Shown here one piece after another: positions 26,603-35,064 of a stretch of 64,000 nucleotides of DNA (position 1 is the stretch's first letter; each line of letters begins with the position of its first letter). Under the pieces are notes generated by a model. It did no database searches. It saw nothing but the letters and a program-made list of their open reading frames with translations, and was not told the DNA's origin. The position numbers were made by a program, and so were the translations under genes. Where the stretch lies: sequence record KC801932. The stretch is one strand, 5' to 3'. Origin of the DNA: Escherichia phage Lw1.

Positions 26603-27256
26603 ATGAAAATTGATTACGAATTAGTAGAAGGGTTCCGTGCTCTGTCTACAAAAGAACAAAAAGGCGCACTGGCTGACTATGCGCAAAGCACCTTCGATGT
26701 AAAACTGAACAAACAGAAATCATTCGATAACATGCTGGCTGATCTGGAAGCTGCTGTACCAGCGGAAGAAGATAAACCAGAACTGTTGATTGATTCGCCT
26801 GAACCGGAAATTCTGATTAAAGTTGGTGATATAACAGTCACTTCTGACGCAATGAAAGTTGAGATTGATTCGCCTGTTGATCTATCTGGTGACTTCATGC
26901 AATACGTTAAAGACGTTGCTCCTTGTGTCGCTGATCAGATCACGCTAGTTACCGATGATGTAGAACCTCCTGTAAGCGATTCTAACGAGTCCAAACCCGA
27001 TATGGCATGGTTGGATTGTTTTAGCCCTACAATCGTTCTGATGGGGCGTAGCGCTCGTTCTAATGGGTATTACACATGCCCCTGGTGGATCTACGATTGG
27101 ATTAAGAAAAATCCAGATTGGCACAAAGATCCTGACCAGTGTCCGCACTACAGCGCACGGGATACTCTCAAATCGCTGGTGTACTACATCAAGCGTGATG
27201 GACAAGTTACGGTGCGTGAAACCCGCAACAGTAGTTTCGACACCTTCAAATTTTAG
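26603..27256 (+). CDS. hypothetical protein
   Basis: 217 aa from ATG 26603 preceded by GGAG; acidic central region; no recognised family. Confidence 0.5.
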   Translation: MKIDYELVEGFRALSTKEQKGALADYAQSTFDVKLNKQKSFDNMLADLEAAVPAEEDKPELLIDSPEPEILIKVGDITVTSDAMKVEIDSPVDLSGDFMQYVKDVAPCVADQITLVTDDVEPPVSDSNESKPDMAWLDCFSPTIVLMGRSARSNGYYTCPWWIYDWIKKNPDWHKDPDQCPHYSARDTLKSLVYYIKRDGQVTVRETRNSSFDTFKF

Positions 27257-27278
27257 CACTTTTTGCTAATAAAACTTG

Positions 27279-27307
27279 TTGACCGTTACCCTGCTTTCGC
27301 GTATATT
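27279..27307 (+). promoter_or_regulatory. sigma70-like promoter TTGACC-N17-TATATT
   Basis: Hexamers at 27279-27284 and 27302-27307, upstream of ORF 27357. Confidence 0.5.
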
Positions 27308-27356
27308 TGTATTCGAAGGCGGGGGAAAGGCTCTCGCAGTGAAGAAGGAAAGCAAA

Positions 27357-27674
27357 ATGAAAAACGAAATGATGAAAAACGCTTACTATCCAGTTCTGTT
27401 TGTTTGGGGTGATGGGAAAGTTAAGAAAGTCGTCAATTCAAAAGCTCCTTATTACACTGTTGGAGAAGCTCTCCGTCATGCTGCTGAGGCTAATTATCCG
27501 GTAGCTTTCGAACCTGGTTATGCTCGTTGGAACGGTTCTAAATGGGTTGCTGATAGTTGGGATAATTACGAAGAAGAAAGAATGGAATGTGATCCTGATT
27601 ACGTTTCTCGTCAGATGGAAGCACATATGATTGCAGATCGCCGTCTTGATAACGAAGCTCGCGGTTTCTACTAA
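27357..27674 (+). CDS. hypothetical protein
   Basis: 105 aa from ATG 27357 preceded by GAAGGAAAG; terminator follows. Confidence 0.5.
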   Translation: MKNEMMKNAYYPVLFVWGDGKVKKVVNSKAPYYTVGEALRHAAEANYPVAFEPGYARWNGSKWVADSWDNYEEERMECDPDYVSRQMEAHMIADRRLDNEARGFY

Positions 27675-27682
27675 AATTTGAA

Positions 27683-27706
27683 AGGGGCTACGGCCCCTTT
27701 TTTCAT
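27683..27706 (+). terminator. rho-independent terminator
   Basis: GGGGC-tacg-GCCCC followed by TTTTTT. Confidence 0.7.
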
Positions 27707-27715
27707 AGGTGAATT

Positions 27716-28279
27716 ATGTTGAACCATGAATGTTTGAAAGATTTAAGTGACGGTAAAGAGATCGGGAACGTTATATTTCTCGATATTGATGGAGTTCTAA
27801 ATAATATGCGGTCTATGAAATTCGGTGAACATATGGACATCGAATGTGCGCGACACTTGCGCCGGATCGTGAACCATGCAGATTGTGATATCGTTGTTTC
27901 TTCAACATGGCGTATAGGAAACACGACACACAACCTACGTGAAATTCTGTACCCCTGGGGGCTTTATCGCGTTATCGGTCGAACTTGTAGTAATATGCAG
28001 GGTGCTTACCAACGTGGGGATGAAATCAAGGCATGGATCGACGCTTTCGGATGTAAGAATTATCTTATTCTGGATGATGATCGCGACATGTTACAGGAAC
28101 AGAATGAACACTTCATTCGAACCGATCCTTACATTGGGTTGACAGAAGAACAATCAACCTTTGCGATCCGTAATATATTTGGAATAACGACCCCGTTTTG
28201 TCCTGAATGCAATGGCTACGGGCGCGTGAATGAATATGATAAATGCGGTAGCTGCAACGGTAAAATTTTACGTCTATAA
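27716..28279 (+). CDS. HAD-superfamily phosphatase-like protein with C-terminal zinc ribbon
   Basis: 187 aa; N-terminal VIFLDIDGVLNN is the HAD motif I (DxDGxL); C-terminal C-P-E-C...C-G-S-C. Confidence 0.55.
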   Translation: MLNHECLKDLSDGKEIGNVIFLDIDGVLNNMRSMKFGEHMDIECARHLRRIVNHADCDIVVSSTWRIGNTTHNLREILYPWGLYRVIGRTCSNMQGAYQRGDEIKAWIDAFGCKNYLILDDDRDMLQEQNEHFIRTDPYIGLTEEQSTFAIRNIFGITTPFCPECNGYGRVNEYDKCGSCNGKILRL

Positions 28280-28282
28280 ATA
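28275..28282 (+). promoter_or_regulatory. T4-type late promoter core TATAAATA
   Basis: Exact TATAAATA, 25 nt upstream of ORF 28307. Confidence 0.5.
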
Positions 28283-28306
28283 TAGAAAAATTAAGAGGTT
28301 TCAACA

Positions 28307-28810
28307 ATGGCTACTGAAAAATGGACTACGGTTCACCCTATCCCGTGGCGTAATACCAGTTTTACCTATCTCCCGTGGTGGATCTTCGATATTATCGTTG
28401 CTGCTAATACGGCTGGTGATGACTGGCGAGGTTACGCCGAAGAAAAATATGCGAAAGAATTCGACACTCTGAAACAGGCATACATCGATTATACCGATGT
28501 TGATTTCATCGAATCTCGCAACGGTTATCTGTATAAACTGAGTGATTTTACTCCTGCTGATCCTGTCGTAACAATTACACCAAAAACCGCTCCTGCTGAT
28601 TTCAAAGTAGGTGATGCTGACCTAGCTGCAACTGATCTGTTTACCATCGATCCTTCTGGTACAGCAATGACTCTGAGTGTTGACTCTTCCGGTCATGGTT
28701 CTATCGTTGGTGGTAAACTCCATGCGGTTAGTGAAGGTGATGTTGTCGTAACAGCAACCTCTGGATCTGTTACTGCAACTCTGACGGTAAACGTTAAACC
28801 TGCACTATAA
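28307..28810 (+). CDS. hypothetical protein with C-terminal bacterial Ig-like (Big_2-type) domain
   Basis: 167 aa; C-terminal 80 aa (FKVGDADLAATDLFTIDPSG...LHAVSEGDVVVTATSGSVTATLTVNV) fits the Big_2 pattern. Confidence 0.6.
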   Translation: MATEKWTTVHPIPWRNTSFTYLPWWIFDIIVAANTAGDDWRGYAEEKYAKEFDTLKQAYIDYTDVDFIESRNGYLYKLSDFTPADPVVTITPKTAPADFKVGDADLAATDLFTIDPSGTAMTLSVDSSGHGSIVGGKLHAVSEGDVVVTATSGSVTATLTVNVKPAL

Positions 28811-28827
28811 CAACTAAGAAGGTAAAA

Positions 28828-29328
28828 ATGCTGCTATTTGAATTCAATGATGTATTCGCAAAATTCAGCGATGCAATCGAAGCTAAATTTGGCAAACGTC
28901 CACAAAACATGACAGAAACAGAATATAACGATGCTGTTTCGTCCCTGGTTCGTACAGATTTCTATGAAAAGCTGGCGATCGAGGTTTTGGGCTGGGATAT
29001 GATGAAATGGGGTATGACTTATCGCGATCGCGAAGTCGGTTTTATTCTCGTCAACGAAGTCAAAAGCCCGTCCTGGGTGAATAACCAGAAAATAGCATAT
29101 ATGGATAAAGTATGTGCGGAAATGGGGATTGTTCGACTGGACTTCTGGACTTGCCGTGATCTGAACGAACTGAAAGGTCACGCGTACCGTTGCCCGTTGA
29201 TTTCTCGCAATGAGAAACACCGTCAAGCATGGGATAGCGCTGGGAAATATCGTAGCGTGTTCCTGAACGACGACATTAACATCACTATTCAGGACGTGAA
29301 TCGAGCGTTCACTGAATACCATCCATAA
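28828..29328 (+). CDS. hypothetical protein
   Basis: 166 aa ORF with AGGT upstream; no recognised family. Confidence 0.5.
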   Translation: MLLFEFNDVFAKFSDAIEAKFGKRPQNMTETEYNDAVSSLVRTDFYEKLAIEVLGWDMMKWGMTYRDREVGFILVNEVKSPSWVNNQKIAYMDKVCAEMGIVRLDFWTCRDLNELKGHAYRCPLISRNEKHRQAWDSAGKYRSVFLNDDINITIQDVNRAFTEYHP

Positions 29329-29330
29329 TA

Positions 29331-29360
29331 AAAAAGGGAACCGCAATGGTTCCCTTTCTT
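29331..29360. terminator. bidirectional terminator between convergent genes
   Basis: AAAAA-GGGAACC-gcaat-GGTTCCC-TTTCTT. Confidence 0.6.
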
Positions 29361-29828
29361 CTAGGCTATTTTTCTTATTTCTTTCAAGGCTTCTTCTTTG
29401 CTTCCAACGAAGAGGATCGCTTTACCTCCGGCTTTTCTGAATGGCAACACGGCTTTTGCTCTGTCGTCTATCAGTATGCCCTGGCTCGCGTAGGCTGCTT
29501 TGTCTTTGCTGCTTTTGGTGTAGTGGAATTCAGGTAAGTATCCCAATTCTCTCAACAGCGCTTTTTTCTTCTGTTCTGCTACTTCTTCTGAATCATACTT
29601 CCCAACACTGGTCAAGATCGCAACCTGTCCCAATGTTTTCAGGTGGTGGAACAATTCAAACCCTTCTTTTAAAGGTTTCAGGTTTTCGTAGAAGTCGGTT
29701 TTTGCGATTGCTTGTTTAGCCTTTTTCAGTTCTTCTTCTGGCATTCTCGCCGGATCACCATACATCGGTATGAAAGAACCTTCCCAATCAAACAGTACAC
29801 CATCCATATCAAAGAAAAACTTATTCAT
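29361..29828 (-). CDS. HAD-family 5'(3')-deoxyribonucleotidase-like protein
   Basis: 155 aa from ATG at 29828 (GAGG upstream); N-terminal FFFDMDGVLFDW matches the DMDGVL motif of 5'(3')-deoxyribonucleotidases; the track ORF extends to 29915 but overlaps the upstream gene. Confidence 0.6.
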   Translation of the reverse strand: MNKFFFDMDGVLFDWEGSFIPMYGDPARMPEEELKKAKQAIAKTDFYENLKPLKEGFELFHHLKTLGQVAILTSVGKYDSEEVAEQKKKALLRELGYLPEFHYTKSSKDKAAYASQGILIDDRAKAVLPFRKAGGKAILFVGSKEEALKEIRKIA

Positions 29829-29877
29829 ATCAATTCCTCGCCTTGTGTGTGCATAATATTCATATATGTTCTCATTG

Positions 29878-30711
29878 TCAACCCCATGTATCGGTTTTAG
29901 GTGCGTATGCTGCAACTTTAGCCACTAATTCCTTATCAAGCTGATCAATGGATTTCTGCGGTTTGCCTTTTGCCTTAACTTTGATGTAATTAGACTTGAC
30001 AACGAACATACCGCCTTTGTCGGATTTCTTAACTTCGCTATCAATACCAACTTTGTTAAAGCTGATCCAGATGTCACCATCCATGTACTGTTTCAGAGAA
30101 TCGCCCATGTTAAGGATCTTAGCCATAGTAAGCGCGGCCCCTTCGTGGGTATCCATGAGGATCTCTTTTGGAACAACACGGTCGCGTTTCAGGTTCTGCT
30201 GCATGGCAATATGAACATCGTTCATTACCCAAACGATATGGATGTTTTCTTTCTTGTACCCCAGCGCTTCAACATCACGGGCGATACTTGCCAGTTTGCT
30301 CATGCTTTTCAGGGTTACGTCAAAAATCAGGTTTGGTTTGCGATCTTCCGGTGCTGCTGCGATACCAGCATAAACACGCGCCTGGTTTTTGTTTGATACG
30401 TTGAAAACGTCTGCGATCACATGGTGAAGTGTTGCAACGTTATCAGGGTTTTTCAGGTTCATTGTTTTAACGTCATGACCTGTTTTTGCTTTAATTTCTG
30501 CTGCTAGTTTGGTGCTACCCATTACCAGCTTTTTCAATGCGTCAACGTCCAGTGTGATCCCTTCGATGCCTAACAGCTTTTCGAGAGTGAAGCCTTTACC
30601 GGAACCCGCACCGCCAGCCAGGATCACGACCTGACCGAATTTCTGATAAGCCTTACCGCCGAAGGTAATCAGCGCTTCATCAAGGCTCACAAAGTCTTTG
30701 AATGATTTCAT
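29878..30711 (-). CDS. nucleoside-monophosphate-kinase-like P-loop protein
   Basis: 277 aa; P-loop ILAGGAGSGKG resembles the adenylate/UMP-CMP kinase G-x-x-G-x-GKG loop; precise substrate unknown. Confidence 0.5.
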   Translation of the reverse strand: MKSFKDFVSLDEALITFGGKAYQKFGQVVILAGGAGSGKGFTLEKLLGIEGITLDVDALKKLVMGSTKLAAEIKAKTGHDVKTMNLKNPDNVATLHHVIADVFNVSNKNQARVYAGIAAAPEDRKPNLIFDVTLKSMSKLASIARDVEALGYKKENIHIVWVMNDVHIAMQQNLKRDRVVPKEILMDTHEGAALTMAKILNMGDSLKQYMDGDIWISFNKVGIDSEVKKSDKGGMFVVKSNYIKVKAKGKPQKSIDQLDKELVAKVAAYAPKTDTWG

Positions 30712-30743
30712 TTTAGAACTCCAGGGTTATTTTAATATATTTA

Positions 30744-30773
30744 TTGACATCGTTTTGCTGATGGATTTATAGT
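30744..30773 (+). promoter_or_regulatory. sigma70-like promoter TTGACA-N18-TATAGT
   Basis: Hexamers at 30744-30749 and 30768-30773, in the divergent intergenic region upstream of ORF 30824. Confidence 0.45.
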
Positions 30774-30823
30774 GAAGATGTTCGACGGATAGGCCGGAAG
30801 AACTTTAACCATAAGGTGACATT

Positions 30824-31717
30824 ATGAAACTTGAATTAAACCGCTTCATCAAAGCCGCTGCTGCTGGCGACCAGTCAAAATATACATCACGCCGCAACCA
30901 CACATTGTCAAACGATTTCGCTGACCTGCTTGGGTTCAAGCGCTGGCATACTCCGGTTATGCGTCCCGACTGCGATCCTAAATGGGATTACTTTCGTTGG
31001 AGTATTCCCAAACATGCCATTGTGAAAAAGATCCGTGTGATGTCTTTCCGTTTTCTGTATCCTAACTGTATCATCGAAATCGCAAAAGAACGAGATATCA
31101 CCCTCCCTAATGGTTGGAAACTTGCTGACCTGATGGAAACACTGATCCAGATGCGTAGAGAATACAAAGCTGGATACATCCGTTCCTTTGATAAGTTGGG
31201 TGATTACTCAGACAGCGATAATTACAAAGAATGGCAAATGATCGCAAAGTACCTGTTAAACAGCATATGGATTATTATTTGCGGCAAAGGTTCTGCGATC
31301 AACCTGGGAGGTCATGAAATTATTGCCCGTGCTCGCGAAAAGGTTTGTGATGCGGTAAACAAAATCATTTCTTCAGGTGGCGTTGTTCTGCATGTAAACG
31401 TTGACGAAATCGTGTATTACGGCGAACAGGTGGAAGTTGATAATGTCCATCATGAAAAACACTGGAAAGCTATTTTTACTGGTGGCGGTGCTGCATGGGG
31501 TGATAATATGATAACAAGTGGCCCCATTCCAACGATTAAATTTGACCTTGATGACTGGGAACCGCAAAACAACGGTATTCGTTCGGTCGAGGAACAACGC
31601 GCAATGGCTGAACGTATGGCTGCAACGCGAATCAAACGTTTCACCAATGAAATCATAGAGTATATGAACCGCACAAAAGAAGACGTGTTGAAAGATGTTG
31701 ACTTGTCCGGTGAATAA
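30824..31717 (+). CDS. hypothetical protein
   Basis: 297 aa ORF with GGTGA upstream; no recognised family. Confidence 0.5.
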   Translation: MKLELNRFIKAAAAGDQSKYTSRRNHTLSNDFADLLGFKRWHTPVMRPDCDPKWDYFRWSIPKHAIVKKIRVMSFRFLYPNCIIEIAKERDITLPNGWKLADLMETLIQMRREYKAGYIRSFDKLGDYSDSDNYKEWQMIAKYLLNSIWIIICGKGSAINLGGHEIIARAREKVCDAVNKIISSGGVVLHVNVDEIVYYGEQVEVDNVHHEKHWKAIFTGGGAAWGDNMITSGPIPTIKFDLDDWEPQNNGIRSVEEQRAMAERMAATRIKRFTNEIIEYMNRTKEDVLKDVDLSGE

Positions 31718-31753
31718 CTGTAAGCTGTAATCACTGAAAACAAGGAGATAACC

Positions 31754-32071
31754 ATGAAAACGATTCACTGCCGCGAAGAACACGTTGTTTATTACCACGG
31801 ATCTTGTACTGCTGCTGGGATTGAGAGCATGTTGTTGCCTCCTTGTGCTTCTGAAACTCTGTCTGAAAAAGGCAGAAAGAAAAATCTGGATCGTGTTTTC
31901 TTCACTGCTGACATCGGACTTGCTCGGATCTATGCTGGAAGGGCTGCACGTTCTATAGGTGGTGATCCGGTACTGTATCGGGTTGTGTGTCCGGTTGATG
32001 CTGTATGTATGAACGACGACAAAGGCGCGAGCGTTTACCATGCTGCATGGGCTTTCTGTGAGGAAGTATGA
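31754..32071 (+). CDS. hypothetical protein
   Basis: 105 aa; AAGGAG 6 nt upstream; first gene of a translationally coupled five-gene string. Confidence 0.5.
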   Translation: MKTIHCREEHVVYYHGSCTAAGIESMLLPPCASETLSEKGRKKNLDRVFFTADIGLARIYAGRAARSIGGDPVLYRVVCPVDAVCMNDDKGASVYHAAWAFCEEV

Positions 32072-32235
32072 ATGACCGTGTTTTAGCAGTTCTCGTTTTC
32101 CTTCTGGGTTATCGAGTTGAAGTAATGGGTGGTATCATGGCGATGGACGGTGACCTGACCGCAATTTGGGTTACTGCTTTAGGTGTGATGTTCACGTTTC
32201 TTTCTTTTGCGATTGTTAACGAGGCAAACAAATGA
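32068..32235 (+). CDS. small hydrophobic (two-helix membrane) protein, 55 aa
   Basis: ATG 32068 overlaps the upstream stop (ATGA) and its own stop overlaps the next ATG (ATGA); two hydrophobic segments (VLAVLVFLLGY, AIWVTALGVMFTFLSFAIV); absent from the ORF track because it is under 60 aa. Confidence 0.4.
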   Translation: MNDRVLAVLVFLLGYRVEVMGGIMAMDGDLTAIWVTALGVMFTFLSFAIVNEANK

Positions 32236-32558
32236 AACTATTTCATGTAGTGTATGGCGGTATACGTAATCTTGATGTACCATTGCTTGCTGCGGGAACA
32301 GTTGATACACTTGAAGGTAAGATCGGGAAGCGTTTTAAAACTACCGTATCCGAAATCAAAACGGTGTTTGTTGACCATCCGTCAGATATGGAAAATTTAA
32401 TCAATACTCTGGATGACTTGATGATTCCGTTTGCGGAAGAATTTCATTATCAATCAGGACTGTATTTGATTGTGACATTTGTTCTAAAAAATGTTGACAA
32501 TCGAAATCCAGAAGTGTTAGATTTTGTAAGAAAAATCGATTCAATTAAAGGAAAGTGA
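32232..32558 (+). CDS. hypothetical protein
   Basis: 108 aa; start overlaps the preceding stop. Confidence 0.5.
   Translation: MKLFHVVYGGIRNLDVPLLAAGTVDTLEGKIGKRFKTTVSEIKTVFVDHPSDMENLINTLDDLMIPFAEEFHYQSGLYLIVTFVLKNVDNRNPEVLDFVRKIDSIKGK
32494..32522 (+). promoter_or_regulatory. possible internal sigma70-like promoter TTGACA-N17-TTAGAT
   Basis: Good -35, weak -10; lies inside ORF 32232-32558. Confidence 0.3.
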
Positions 32559-32899
32559 TTATGAAAATCGTTCAGCGTAATATCAGCGAAGTTAGCCAGG
32601 AAGAAAAAGTTCAGATTCATTTCAAATTTAATGATCTGAAACGTGGTTATGCAGAAATTGCCCGTGTTCATGGGCTGGACAATGGGGATATTTATATGAT
32701 TGTCCAAGAAATTGAGCGAATTCGTGCTTTCCGTGCGGAGAACCCGAAAGTAAAACGCGTTCTGCGTCGTGTATATGTCAACAAACACCGCAAAGCGGCG
32801 AAACAAGTTAAAACCAAACGCGAACCGCGTCCAGATAACAAACGTAAAGCAATCAACGGTGCTATGGCGCTGGCTTTCCAGGAAGCGGGTTTAGTGTAA
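32555..32899 (+). CDS. hypothetical basic protein
   Basis: 114 aa; lysine/arginine-rich C-terminal half; start overlaps the preceding stop. Confidence 0.5.
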   Translation: MIMKIVQRNISEVSQEEKVQIHFKFNDLKRGYAEIARVHGLDNGDIYMIVQEIERIRAFRAENPKVKRVLRRVYVNKHRKAAKQVKTKREPRPDNKRKAINGAMALAFQEAGLV

Positions 32900-32908
32900 G
32901 GGGCTGAC

Positions 32909-33439
32909 ATGAGTCGTAGACAAAATATGGAACGTTGGACTGGTGTTGTAACCAGCAGTGTTAAACCAGTTACCGCTGTAGTGAAAGAAGTTGTTGAAGA
33001 AACTCCGGTTAAAACTCAGATGGTTATTTCTCTGAGTGATGAAGAGTTAGAGCATCGTCGCCGTGCGAATCAAATTGAATTCGATCTGCGTATCGCTCGT
33101 TCATACAACAGCAAAAATGATGATGCTCGTAGCCGGAATCTGCAATTTGCTCTTACGTTGAGTGATTGGACCTCTTTAATGAGTCAACCAACTTGCTTGT
33201 ATTCTGGGAAGGTGTTTAGTTCTCGTGGAGATAGCCCGAATTCTCGAACGATGGAACGAATTAACCCGATGCTGGGTTACACTCCAGAAAATACGATCGC
33301 AGTGACAAAAGCCGCTAACAGTGAAAAATCATCACTTGATGCGTTTATGAAGGGTTCGGTAATCCTTCCAGAAGTAAAACTGAAACTGTTACGCAAAGCC
33401 GCGTATCAAATTGAAAAACAATTGAAAATCAAAGGTTAA
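32909..33439 (+). CDS. hypothetical protein with degenerate HNH-like motif
   Basis: 176 aa; C-LYSG...ERINP..GY..EN...V.KAAN.EK aligns to the HNH scaffold (CxxCG...HHIxP..GG...N....C..CN..K) but lacks the catalytic His and most zinc ligands. Confidence 0.4.
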   Translation: MSRRQNMERWTGVVTSSVKPVTAVVKEVVEETPVKTQMVISLSDEELEHRRRANQIEFDLRIARSYNSKNDDARSRNLQFALTLSDWTSLMSQPTCLYSGKVFSSRGDSPNSRTMERINPMLGYTPENTIAVTKAANSEKSSLDAFMKGSVILPEVKLKLLRKAAYQIEKQLKIKG

Positions 33440-33443
33440 TATT

Positions 33444-34490
33444 ATGTTTGTGAAATATTCTTCTCTTACTAACCATTACGAAGGTAAGTTCATTAATGGC
33501 GTGATCATGAATGGCCTTACTGGTGGTGTGTGGTGTGCTCGTGAAAAGATACACGGTACAAACTTTAGTCTGATTACTTCGGACGGTGAAAAAGTCATTC
33601 CAGCAAAACGTAGCGGTGAAATCCTTCCTACTGAACAGTTTTACGGTTGTGAACCTGTCGTTGCAAAATATTCTAATGCTGTGCGCGAGTTGTGGGAAAC
33701 CCTCGCAAATACCTGTGAATATAAGGAATACGCTGATATCGGTTCTCTGGTTGTACAGGTATACGGCGAATTTGCGGGGCGTGGTGTTCAAAAAGATGTT
33801 GATTACGGAGAAAAAGATTTCTATGTATTCGATATCCGTGTGAATGATAAATTTTTACCAGATAACATTGTTGCATCGGCTGCTGTTTGTGTTGGTTTGA
33901 AAATGGCTCCATTGCTGGCATATGGTACGTTTGAAGAGATCCGCGAACTGCCTATCACGTTTGATTCTGTTGTCAACCTGGCTAATTCCGGCGCAATTGT
34001 TGCGCAAAATGGCGTTGAACCTGCGTTCAAAAACTTCATGACTCTGAAAGATGGTGAAGGTGAAAACATCGCGGAAGGTTTCGTGATGAAGCCCGTCGAA
34101 CCTGCTTTCATGCCGAACGGTGAACGCGTTGCGATCAAATGCAAAACGACGAAGTTCACAGAGAAGAAGAACAAGCAAGCGAACCGCTTCAATGCTCCTG
34201 TTGAACTGTCTGAAAATGATAAAGTTAAACTGGATGTGTTTACCTGTTACCTGAACGAAAACCGCGTGAAAAATGTTTTGTCTAAAATTGACAGCGCAAA
34301 TCTCACTGCAAAAGATTTCGGTCGCGTAATGGGCCTGACGGTACAGGATGCGCTGGAAGAAATCGAACGTAATTATGGCCCGTTCCTGGAACAGTTCGAG
34401 AATCCAACGCTGGCGAAGAAAACCTTCACTAACGAAGCGTCAAATCTGGTTCGTGAGAACTGGGGCGCAATCCTGAACAATGAATTTTAA
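33444..34490 (+). CDS. rnlB: RNA ligase 2
   Basis: 348 aa; strong similarity to T4 Rnl2 as recalled (AREKIHGTNFSL, KDFYVFDI, RVAIKCK.SKF.EKK, MGLTVQD.LEE). Confidence 0.88.
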   Translation: MFVKYSSLTNHYEGKFINGVIMNGLTGGVWCAREKIHGTNFSLITSDGEKVIPAKRSGEILPTEQFYGCEPVVAKYSNAVRELWETLANTCEYKEYADIGSLVVQVYGEFAGRGVQKDVDYGEKDFYVFDIRVNDKFLPDNIVASAAVCVGLKMAPLLAYGTFEEIRELPITFDSVVNLANSGAIVAQNGVEPAFKNFMTLKDGEGENIAEGFVMKPVEPAFMPNGERVAIKCKTTKFTEKKNKQANRFNAPVELSENDKVKLDVFTCYLNENRVKNVLSKIDSANLTAKDFGRVMGLTVQDALEEIERNYGPFLEQFENPTLAKKTFTNEASNLVRENWGAILNNEF

Positions 34491-35064
34491 AACGGTTCTG
34501 GACAACGCGAAGACGGCTACCCTGATCGGTAGCCGTGAACCCCCCGAACGTATCGCAAACCTCGCAATCAAGATCGGACGCGCTTTAAGTGATCGGGAAA
34601 TATTCGCTTACTCTGGTGGTGCTCCAGGAATGGATAGTCATTTTTTATTTGATTACTCACCAGAAAGACGGCGTATAATTCTTCCTGAGAACGGTTTTAA
34701 CGGGTTGTACTCAAATGGTAAGGATATCATCGACTATACAGAATACGACACGTACAAAGCCGCTGACGAAGCGAGAAAGGTAGCTGGACACTTCGACAAC
34801 CAAAACGAATGGACACAGCGCCGATATGCTCGAAATTCCATGCAGGTGCTAACCGAACATCTGGATACGCCTACGGATTTTGTGTTATTCTGGGCTGTTG
34901 AAAAAGAGTTTTGTGTGAAAGGCGGTACTGCGATCGCAGTAAGATTGGCCCGACTGTATGGCATACCCTGTTTCAATCTCTGGAATGAACGGGTATTAAA
35001 TGAAGTTTGCGACACTTTGGGGATTAATACTAAACCTCCAACTTTGGATTTTCTCTGGTGCTAA
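34480..35064 (+). CDS. DprA/SLOG-like Rossmann-fold protein
   Basis: 194 aa; YSGGAPGMDSHF resembles the DprA/Smf SG-x-A-x-GID-x-x-H nucleotide-binding loop; start overlaps the rnlB stop. Confidence 0.45.
   Translation: MNFKTVLDNAKTATLIGSREPPERIANLAIKIGRALSDREIFAYSGGAPGMDSHFLFDYSPERRRIILPENGFNGLYSNGKDIIDYTEYDTYKAADEARKVAGHFDNQNEWTQRRYARNSMQVLTEHLDTPTDFVLFWAVEKEFCVKGGTAIAVRLARLYGIPCFNLWNERVLNEVCDTLGINTKPPTLDFLWC

Follow-up and report, generated by a model that had tools for sequence, protein, structure and literature searches.

A zeta-toxin/polynucleotide-kinase-like protein with a capsid-targeting-like N-terminus and its NT5C-type phosphatase partner in Escherichia phage Lw1

Two neighbouring minus-strand genes of Escherichia phage Lw1, encoding a P-loop kinase and a HAD-family phosphatase, constitute a real and conserved module made of known kinds of enzyme, with what appears to be an unexpected delivery route. 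The genes lie in a stretch of 64,000 nucleotides (nt) from sequence record KC801932, the whole of which is called the window below. The kinase begins with a sequence resembling the propeptides of the T4 internal proteins (IPs) and is preceded by a late-type promoter element, while the phosphatase gene has a sigma-70-type promoter of its own. The explanation preferred here, to which we give an even chance, is that the kinase is made late, packaged in the capsid and injected, and that it acts with an early-made HAD phosphatase on a common nucleotide-type substrate or pathway. The features carrying this argument are as follows.

30738-30745, minus strand: late-type promoter element AATAAATA, matching the T4 late promoter TATAAATA at 7 of 8 positions, 34 nt before the kinase ATG
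30676-30711, minus strand: capsid-targeting-like propeptide, kinase codons 1-12, MKSFKDFVSLDE, with an L-x-E end before Ala13
29878-30711, minus strand: kinase open reading frame (ORF), 277 residues, with GGAGSGKG as residues 33-40; phrog_5268
29853-29881, minus strand: sigma-70-type promoter of the HAD gene, TTGACA-17-TATTAT, 11 of 12 matches in a promoter scan, in the gap between the two genes
29361-29828, minus strand: HAD gene, NT5C-type, 155 residues from the ATG at 29828, N-terminus MNKFFFDMDGVL; phrog_2643

The surrounding DNA (positions 27000-35000 of the window) is about 91% identical over its full length to that of the Citrobacter phages Xman and CfP1, and the window is Pseudotevenvirus DNA, from a T4-type phage of the RB43/RB16/Miller/CfP1 group. 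The two genes are separated by a 49-nt gap on the same strand. The mechanical ORF of the HAD gene spans 29361-29915 on the minus strand; the ATG at 29828 is nevertheless the best start, because a GAGG ribosome site lies just upstream of it and the coding-sequence lengths annotated in related phages agree with it. A search of one database gave 2,457 kinase homologs at E≤1e-3 and a search of a second gave 1,091 cluster representatives, and between Pseudotevenvirus genomes the DNA of the pair is 85-91% identical; chance ORFs are therefore not at issue, and both genes are real.

The kinase N-terminus and the promoters of the pair

The kinase N-terminus reads MKSFKDFVSLDE|ALITFGG, with a putative cleavage site at L10-D11-E12|A13. 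As read from the T4 genome, IPI begins MKTFKEFTSTTTPVSTITE|A, with the pattern MKTFKEF...ITE|A, and IPII and IPIII begin MKTYQEFIAE|A. The kinase thus shares with the three T4 proteins an M-K-[ST]-[FY]-x-[ED]-F propeptide and an [LI]-x-E site before alanine, and its MKSFKDF carries the aromatic residues 4 and 7 of the IPI sequence MKTFKEF. According to a review of Black's work (PMC9026906), the T4 propeptides span 10-19 residues, of which residues 4 and 7 direct targeting, and the L/I-x-E site at residues 8 and 10 governs prohead-protease processing. The kinase family alignment shows F4 and E12 to be invariant, and residues 1-4 were modelled with a predicted local distance difference test score (pLDDT) below 50. 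The N-termini of 67 environmental homologs were found to follow M-x-[ST]-F-x-x-[FY], continuing with an acidic spacer of variable length that holds several L-x-E sites. Immediately before the conserved core stands an invariant [LM]-x-E, a junction seen in 61 of the 67. With its variable spacer and invariant [LM]-x-E, the N-terminus looks like a cleavable propeptide; its capsid-targeting-like character is a new observation.

As a control, a regular expression for the capsid-targeting motif was run over all six frames of T4, CfP1 and the window. Throughout the T4 genome it returned IPI, IPII and IPIII together with two other proteins, PseT.1 and Td; only the kinase and gp159 were returned in CfP1, and only the kinase in the window. 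Across 80 viral loci, ten other ORFs carry the motif where shuffles predict 0.18; none of the ten is more than four ORFs away from the kinase, a clustering that recalls the variable internal-protein clusters of T-even phages. In cultured phages the kinase has head genes as neighbours, namely hoc and inh here, hoc-1 in Aeromonas phage CC2, and gp24/gp55 and alt in Vibrio phage nt-1. A further candidate internal head protein of the phage group was noticed in CfP1 (105170-105961; L086:10170-10961): encoded between genes 3 and 2, this protein of 263 residues has the N-terminus MKSFKELLSE|S, which matches the T4 capsid-targeting sequence over 10 residues.

The promoters of the two genes differ in type, which is likewise a new observation. 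The late-type element AATAAATA before the kinase is conserved in the Slopekvirus Matisse. Among 48 unique kinase-homolog regions, 33 (69%) have the exact octamer TATAAATA within 100 nt upstream, mostly at -46 to -27, compared with 48 of 995 other ORFs (5%) at the same loci (Fisher p 1e-28). The window holds nine exact octamers against 2.7 expected, mostly before structural genes. Another candidate late promoter of the kinase, TATAAATC at 30771-30764, is not conserved in Matisse and was dropped in favour of AATAAATA. The TTGACA of the HAD promoter overlaps the kinase stop codon, and both Matisse and several environmental loci have a TTGACA with a downstream TATAGT or TAGTAT at the equivalent place before HAD. 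These elements suggest that the kinase is expressed late and the HAD gene early. At one viral contig (L016) the two proteins are fused, HAD first, and sigma-70-type promoters lie upstream of the fusion; both activities may thus be present at the very start of infection, either as a capsid-borne kinase with an early HAD or as an early-made fusion.

The kinase is like the T4 internal proteins in its probable late expression, in being basic (predicted isoelectric point 9.4) and in standing among variable genes that share the motif. The T4 proteins, however, are small, non-enzymatic and poorly conserved, whereas the kinase is a predicted enzyme of about 30 kDa kept across many Straboviridae genera. 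Because of its IP-like N-terminus and late-type promoter, the kinase is probably an injected head protein. According to this proposal, it would be synthesized late, enter the prohead as an internal protein, be cut after Glu12 by the prohead protease and be injected together with the DNA. HAD would be made early from its own sigma-70-type promoter and would encounter the injected kinase within the first few minutes after infection begins, the kinase adding a phosphate to a ribose or deoxyribose hydroxyl and HAD removing a sugar monophosphate. If so, the kinase would join Alt among the few catalytic proteins delivered with T4-type DNA, and together with HAD it would point to an undescribed, very early biochemical step of infection, in host takeover or counter-defence.

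Enzyme families of the kinase and the phosphatase

The preliminary description of this DNA took the product of 29878-30711 for a P-loop kinase of the nucleoside monophosphate (NMP) kinase type. Profile searches bore out the first half of this assignment: the protein matches the Pfam family Zeta_toxin (PF06414; E 6e-8, 32.8 bits against a cut-off of 22.3), which places it in a kinase family. Unlike in true zeta toxins, the match is confined to the second half of the model, covering only profile positions 74-173 of 199. All 30 aligned relatives examined matched Zeta_toxin, and nine of them also AAA_33 (E≤0.01), the profile that holds polynucleotide-kinase (PNK)-type kinases; the window kinase scores 14.6 bits against AAA_33, below the cut-off of 27. 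A fold search gave AvrRxo1 first (13.8, with 202 residues aligned), then zeta (12.4), Clostridium thermocellum Pnk (12.0), PezT (11.2) and T4 Pnk (10.7), and the neighbours among predicted viral structures (BFVD) were named zeta-toxin-domain or polynucleotide kinase proteins. Searches of PDB sequences with the single sequence or with a profile gave no meaningful match to a solved structure, nor did NCBIfam or PADLOC give any match. The kinase is assigned to the zeta-toxin/AvrRxo1/polynucleotide-kinase clade, within which zeta and PNK are not separable by sequence. Enzymes of this clade phosphorylate sugar hydroxyls.

The second half of the assignment did not survive. The adenylate-kinase impression given by the string GGAGSGKG is due to the glycine that follows the P-loop lysine, and this glycine-rich, adenylate-kinase-like loop is what speaks for an adenylate or UMP-CMP-type NMP kinase. 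Yet the Pfam scan gave no ADK signal in the window kinase and none in its 30 relatives, adenylate and UMP kinases scored 8.5-8.8 in the fold search, below the zeta and PNK folds, and the DxD..K motif after strand 2 belongs to the hydroxyl-kinase clade. An NMP kinase is accordingly hardly credible.

The invariant residues follow the pattern of the hydroxyl-kinase clade, as far as motif resemblance allows equivalences to be drawn. In Walker A (codons 30592-30615, minus strand; residues 33-40), K39 is invariant. After strand 2 come the invariant residues D55-V-D57-x-x-K60, resembling IIDGDSFR of PezT and D35..R38 of T4 Pnk; both aspartates are invariant, and their match to zeta D67 is by motif resemblance only. 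The next invariant stretch is R124-K-P-N, followed by D131-x-T133-L-K135, which resembles EGTLR of PezT. The lid invariants N173..R176-x-R178-V-V-P181..I184 resemble RATPKE of PezT and the nucleoside pocket V131-P132..V135 of T4 Pnk. Zeta, PezT and AvrRxo1 (PF06414; PDB 1gvn, 2p5t and 4z8q) are the best Pfam and fold matches of the kinase, and share with it the P-loop, D-x-D-x-[LF]-[KR] after strand 2, [DE]-x-T-L-[KR] after strand 3 and a lid with R-x-x-P-K-E. The kinase differs from them in being essentially virus-only, in having no evident antitoxin gene, in its GKG Walker A, in an extra beta-rich C-terminal region of the predicted structure, in its targeting-like propeptide and in having a HAD partner. 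It also contains a 65-residue helical insert, at the site where zeta toxins bind their substrate.

The downstream protein had been described as a 5'(3')-deoxyribonucleotidase-like HAD phosphatase, and the alignment upheld this, with motifs I-IV all present (D7 and D9; T72/S73; K110; D121-D122), the catalytic Asp pair included. Motif I is DMDGV (residues 7-11; codons 29796-29810, minus strand), in which Asp7 would be the nucleophile and Asp9 the acid/base; motif II reads LTSVG in nearly all active members. At least 90% of the sequences in the family alignment (A2) keep D7, D9, K110 and D121-D122. The score against Pfam NT5C (PF06941) is 23.0 bits, under the cut-off of 24.8, several relatives carry the domain, and a kinase-HAD fusion protein (P0210) reaches 25.8; the single NCBIfam match, TIGR01509 (15.0 bits), is far below its cut-off. 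Fold and cap match cdN and mdN, the cytosolic and mitochondrial 5'(3')-deoxyribonucleotidases. Judged by its fold and motifs, HAD is a capped 5'(3')-deoxyribonucleotidase (NT5C)-type phosphatase with complete catalytic motifs. It is shorter, at 155 residues, than cdN/mdN (NT5C, PF06941; PDB 6g2n and 1mh9) and the bacterial protein 3bwv, which have about 170-200 residues, and unlike them it is genetically coupled to a kinase.

Coupling of the two enzymes and their possible role

Functional coupling of the kinase and HAD is well supported. In the metagenomic protein P0210 the kinase is followed by HAD in one polypeptide (HAD profile E 2e-38), and the reverse order, HAD before the kinase in a single uninterrupted ORF, occurs on two distinct viral contigs (L016 and L019/L020). 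In phages of Klebsiella (115), Aeromonas (21), Enterobacter (20), Citrobacter (13) and Escherichia (7), the numbers of kinase and HAD records are identical, even where, as in the group of Aeromonas phage CC2, a long distance separates the two genes. Longer apparent fusions, of the kinase with NUDIX, cytidylyltransferase-like, HD or ParB-like parts, were not used; they may be read-through gene calls, and one of them (P0179) joins genes that are separate neighbours elsewhere.

What does the pair act on? Fusion in both orders is exactly the pattern of Pnkp, and PNK structures are nearly as close to the kinase as zeta structures, so that Pnkp-like action on nucleic-acid ends is a serious rival to the preferred reading. 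The pair would then be a split Pnkp, the kinase acting on 5'-OH ends and HAD on 3'-phosphates of broken RNA or DNA, with the products feeding the RNA ligase 2 encoded at 33444; this is judged unlikely, and so, to the same degree, is its corollary that the phage has another set for healing and sealing ends, such as might counter a nuclease of tRNA or mRNA beyond the reach of PseT. The parallel with Pnkp, already drawn in the preliminary description, is strengthened by the fusions, but not as far as a stand-in for Pnkp is concerned. The CfP1 gene set comprises PseT, RnlA, RnlB, the gene 1 deoxynucleoside monophosphate (dNMP) kinase, tk, cd, td, frd, nrdAB, nrdDG, NAMPT and a Nudix hydrolase, and because PseT, RnlA, RnlB and gene 1 are among them, the pair is not a substitute for Pnkp or the dNMP kinase. 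T4 PseT (PDB 1ltq) and the bacterial and mammalian PNKPs are single polypeptides, whereas the enzymes here are encoded by separate genes with different promoters, and a true PseT is encoded elsewhere in the CfP1 genome. Furthermore, the phosphatase of Pnkp is of the capless DxDGT type and the window HAD of the capped NT5C type, and the kinase is about 120 residues longer than that of PNK.

What favours a nucleotide-sized substrate instead is that HAD is capped and that the kinase has numerous invariant polar residues and a helical insert. One role of this kind is remodelling of the cytoplasmic nucleotide pool, by a cycle of a (deoxy)nucleoside or nucleotide kinase and a deoxynucleotidase or by a base-selective dNTP filter. 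HAD is of the type of cdN and mdN, which operate in substrate cycles together with deoxynucleoside kinases; deoxynucleotidases are frequent in phages (phrog_2643), and NAMPT, nrdD/G and thioredoxin genes lie within 15 kb in CfP1. The kinase would remain unpackaged in such a scheme, whereas its N-terminus and promoter point to the head, and we regard pool remodelling as slightly less probable than a split Pnkp.

Somewhat further down in likelihood comes a poison like zeta or AvrRxo1, in which the kinase would 3'-phosphorylate UDP-GlcNAc, NAD+ or a similar host metabolite and HAD would serve as the enzymatic antidote. AvrRxo1, zeta and PezT are the best fold and Pfam matches, LDVDALK and LIFDVTLK of the kinase resemble IIDGDSFR and LLIEGTLR of PezT, and injection followed by early HAD would fit a pulse of activity. 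A protein antitoxin is not evident: no antitoxin family was found by Pfam, PHROG, NCBIfam or PADLOC among the neighbours of the kinase, which are HAD and a divergent gene for a protein of 297 residues. On the other side, hhalign gave no significant match to PezT outside the P-loop, the benefit to a lytic phage is not evident, and fusions in which a single early promoter drives both the kinase and its presumed antidote are hard to square with antagonism. NT5C enzymes are not known to use UNAG-3P or 3'-NADP.

To return to the injected kinase and early HAD, from the N-terminus, promoters, fusions and folds we infer packaging, cleavage, timing, joint action and a small-molecule rather than a polymer substrate. 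A number of findings weigh against this reading. The late element of the window itself is a 7/8 variant, AATAAATA, and not the exact octamer; PseT.1 and Td are positive for the motif and not known to be packaged; and several CfP1 proteins merely begin MKSF. Literature searches aimed at such data, also for phage GuL6, yielded no virion proteomics or N-terminal sequences for any member of the kinase family. In the HAD-kinase fusions the motif is internal and the upstream promoters are of early type, so that packaging is not universal. HAD is next to the kinase in a minority of the 80 viral loci, adjoining it in six, lying six ORFs away in one and being fused to it in three. The Walker A sequence is GKG and not GK[ST], glycine following the lysine, which is unusual for the clade. 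With hhalign, the family profile aligned significantly neither with the single PezT sequence beyond the P-loop nor with the single PseT sequence of CfP1. Finally, the leaning towards a small molecule over a polymer stems just from the HAD cap, the polar kinase residues and the helical insert. With false positives of the motif and a variant local promoter, packaging of the kinase can be called no more than a well-founded inference from sequence.

A bolder version, which can be offered only tentatively, is that in many T4-type phages an injected zeta/PNK-like kinase and an immediate HAD rewrite a host nucleotide before other phage functions begin. Conceivable targets, at the same tentative level, would be an immune signalling nucleotide, NAD+, a nucleotide sugar or damaged RNA ends; and the kinase may, equally tentatively, have decayed to a non-catalytic head protein in Vibrio phages. 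AvrRxo1 is an NAD kinase. No specific support was found for a link to NAD in the likeness to AvrRxo1 and the nearby NAMPT gene of CfP1. If the kinase does act in this way, it would represent a new and widespread class of ejected enzymes.

Distribution of the kinase and neighbouring genes

The kinase family is essentially virus-only. A search of 185,579 prokaryote genomes gave only 11 kinase loci, the longest being contigs of 142-178 kb, mostly from metagenome-assembled genomes, that carry phage-like DNA. One contig of 178,077 bp, as long as a Pseudotevenvirus genome, in a Flagellimonas marina assembly (L089; NZ_JBHSCL010000010.1) encodes a kinase 98% identical to that of the window, and is probably phage DNA in the assembly and not a bacterial gene. 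Members occur in phages of enterobacteria, Aeromonas, Vibrio and marine bacteria. Many of the viral loci L006-L085 have heme-oxygenase-like and bilin-reductase-like neighbours (clusters C17 and C11; sequences read by eye). No kinase was found in the cultured cyanophages of the phage collection, and the environmental loci probably belong to marine T4-type phages of heterotrophs.

Labels in use for the family since 2006 are "zeta toxin" and "hypothetical"; no role has been proposed for it, and it is among the larger conserved unknowns of T4-type phages. A weak zeta-toxin match of RB43ORF241c was listed in that year without comment (PMC1524935), and no functional study of the family was found in the literature. 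On the reading proposed here, viral "zeta toxin" matches in metagenomes should not be read as toxin-antitoxin genes (as in PMC8940887).

Many homologs contain inteins inside Walker A, between G36 and S37 (AGGAG|C...HN|SGKGF). Intein-bearing homologs include P0212, P0238, P0221, P0176, P0251 and P0279, and some of the inteins have LAGLIDADG homing endonucleases. Inteins typically sit in conserved, functionally important sites, and their position in the P-loop suggests that the function of this loop matters. The homolog of Vibrio phage nt-1 (ORF331; L100:4992-6437) is a protein of 481 residues with a long C-terminal extension. Its gene directly follows gp24 and gp55. It has lost Walker A, DVD, D131 and the lid arginines, and it keeps the N-terminal motif MLGNFDSFLSE and the structural core; by its residues, it is a pseudo-kinase, and the retained motif counts in favour of packaging.

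Around the pair, the following features were recognized.

27716-28279, plus strand: HAD_SAK_2 phosphatase (PF18143, E 1e-29) with a C-terminal CxxC zinc ribbon, between inh and hoc
28828-29328, plus strand: degenerate HAD paralogue, 166 residues (phrog_2643, E 3.6e-54), downstream of hoc
29336-29354: probable two-way terminator hairpin, GGGAACC-5 nt-GGTTCCC, with T-rich tracts on both strands
33444-34490, plus strand: RNA ligase 2 (RnlB), Pfam RNA_ligase and T4_Rnl2_C; PHROG RNA ligase, E 2e-112

The paralogue, absent from the preliminary description, is convergent with HAD, from which it is separated by the hairpin, their common terminator. The hairpin was read by eye and not picked up by a simple terminator scan; terminators are annotated at the equivalent place in CfP1 and Matisse. 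In the paralogue, EFNDV replaces DMDGV as motif I, with loss of the catalytic Asp pair, and ISRN replaces IDDR as motif IV. The Matisse paralogue, 40% identical, keeps FDFDDT and is without motif IV. An exact late promoter, TATAAATA at 28275, precedes the paralogue of the window. Going by these motifs, the paralogue is a conserved pseudo-enzyme, possibly a binding partner of the kinase.

The second HAD-type phosphatase with a zinc ribbon, reported earlier at 27716-28279, is confirmed as a HAD_SAK_2 protein, of the "Swiss Army Knife RNA repair" type; its zinc ribbon matches the DnaJ_CXXCXGXG repeat at E 2e-4, under the Pfam cut-off. No link of this gene to the kinase/HAD pair was shown. Three HAD-fold genes thus lie within 2.2 kb of phage DNA.

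The RNA ligase 2 placed at 33444 by the preliminary description is substantiated by its two Pfam domains, and belongs to a separate plus-strand gene block. Its last 11 nt overlap the beginning of a DprA-like gene (34480-35064, plus strand; PHROG "DprA-like DNA recombination-mediator", E 7e-62), an arrangement that suggests translational coupling; the DprA-like gene is named RNA ligase in one GenBank record. Upstream, 32909-33439 (plus strand) encodes an Srd-like "decoy of host sigma70" protein, which HNH endonuclease families also match (E 3e-21), and 31754-32071 (plus strand) is an ORF of 105 residues with no NCBIfam match, whose homolog in phage Cronuts is annotated as a putative ADP-ribosyltransferase. 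Divergent from the kinase, 30824-31717 (plus strand) encodes the conserved protein of 297 residues (phrog_7439), with no Pfam, NCBIfam or PADLOC match; its gene is preceded by a near-consensus sigma-70 promoter, TTGACA-18-TATAGT, at 30744-30773.

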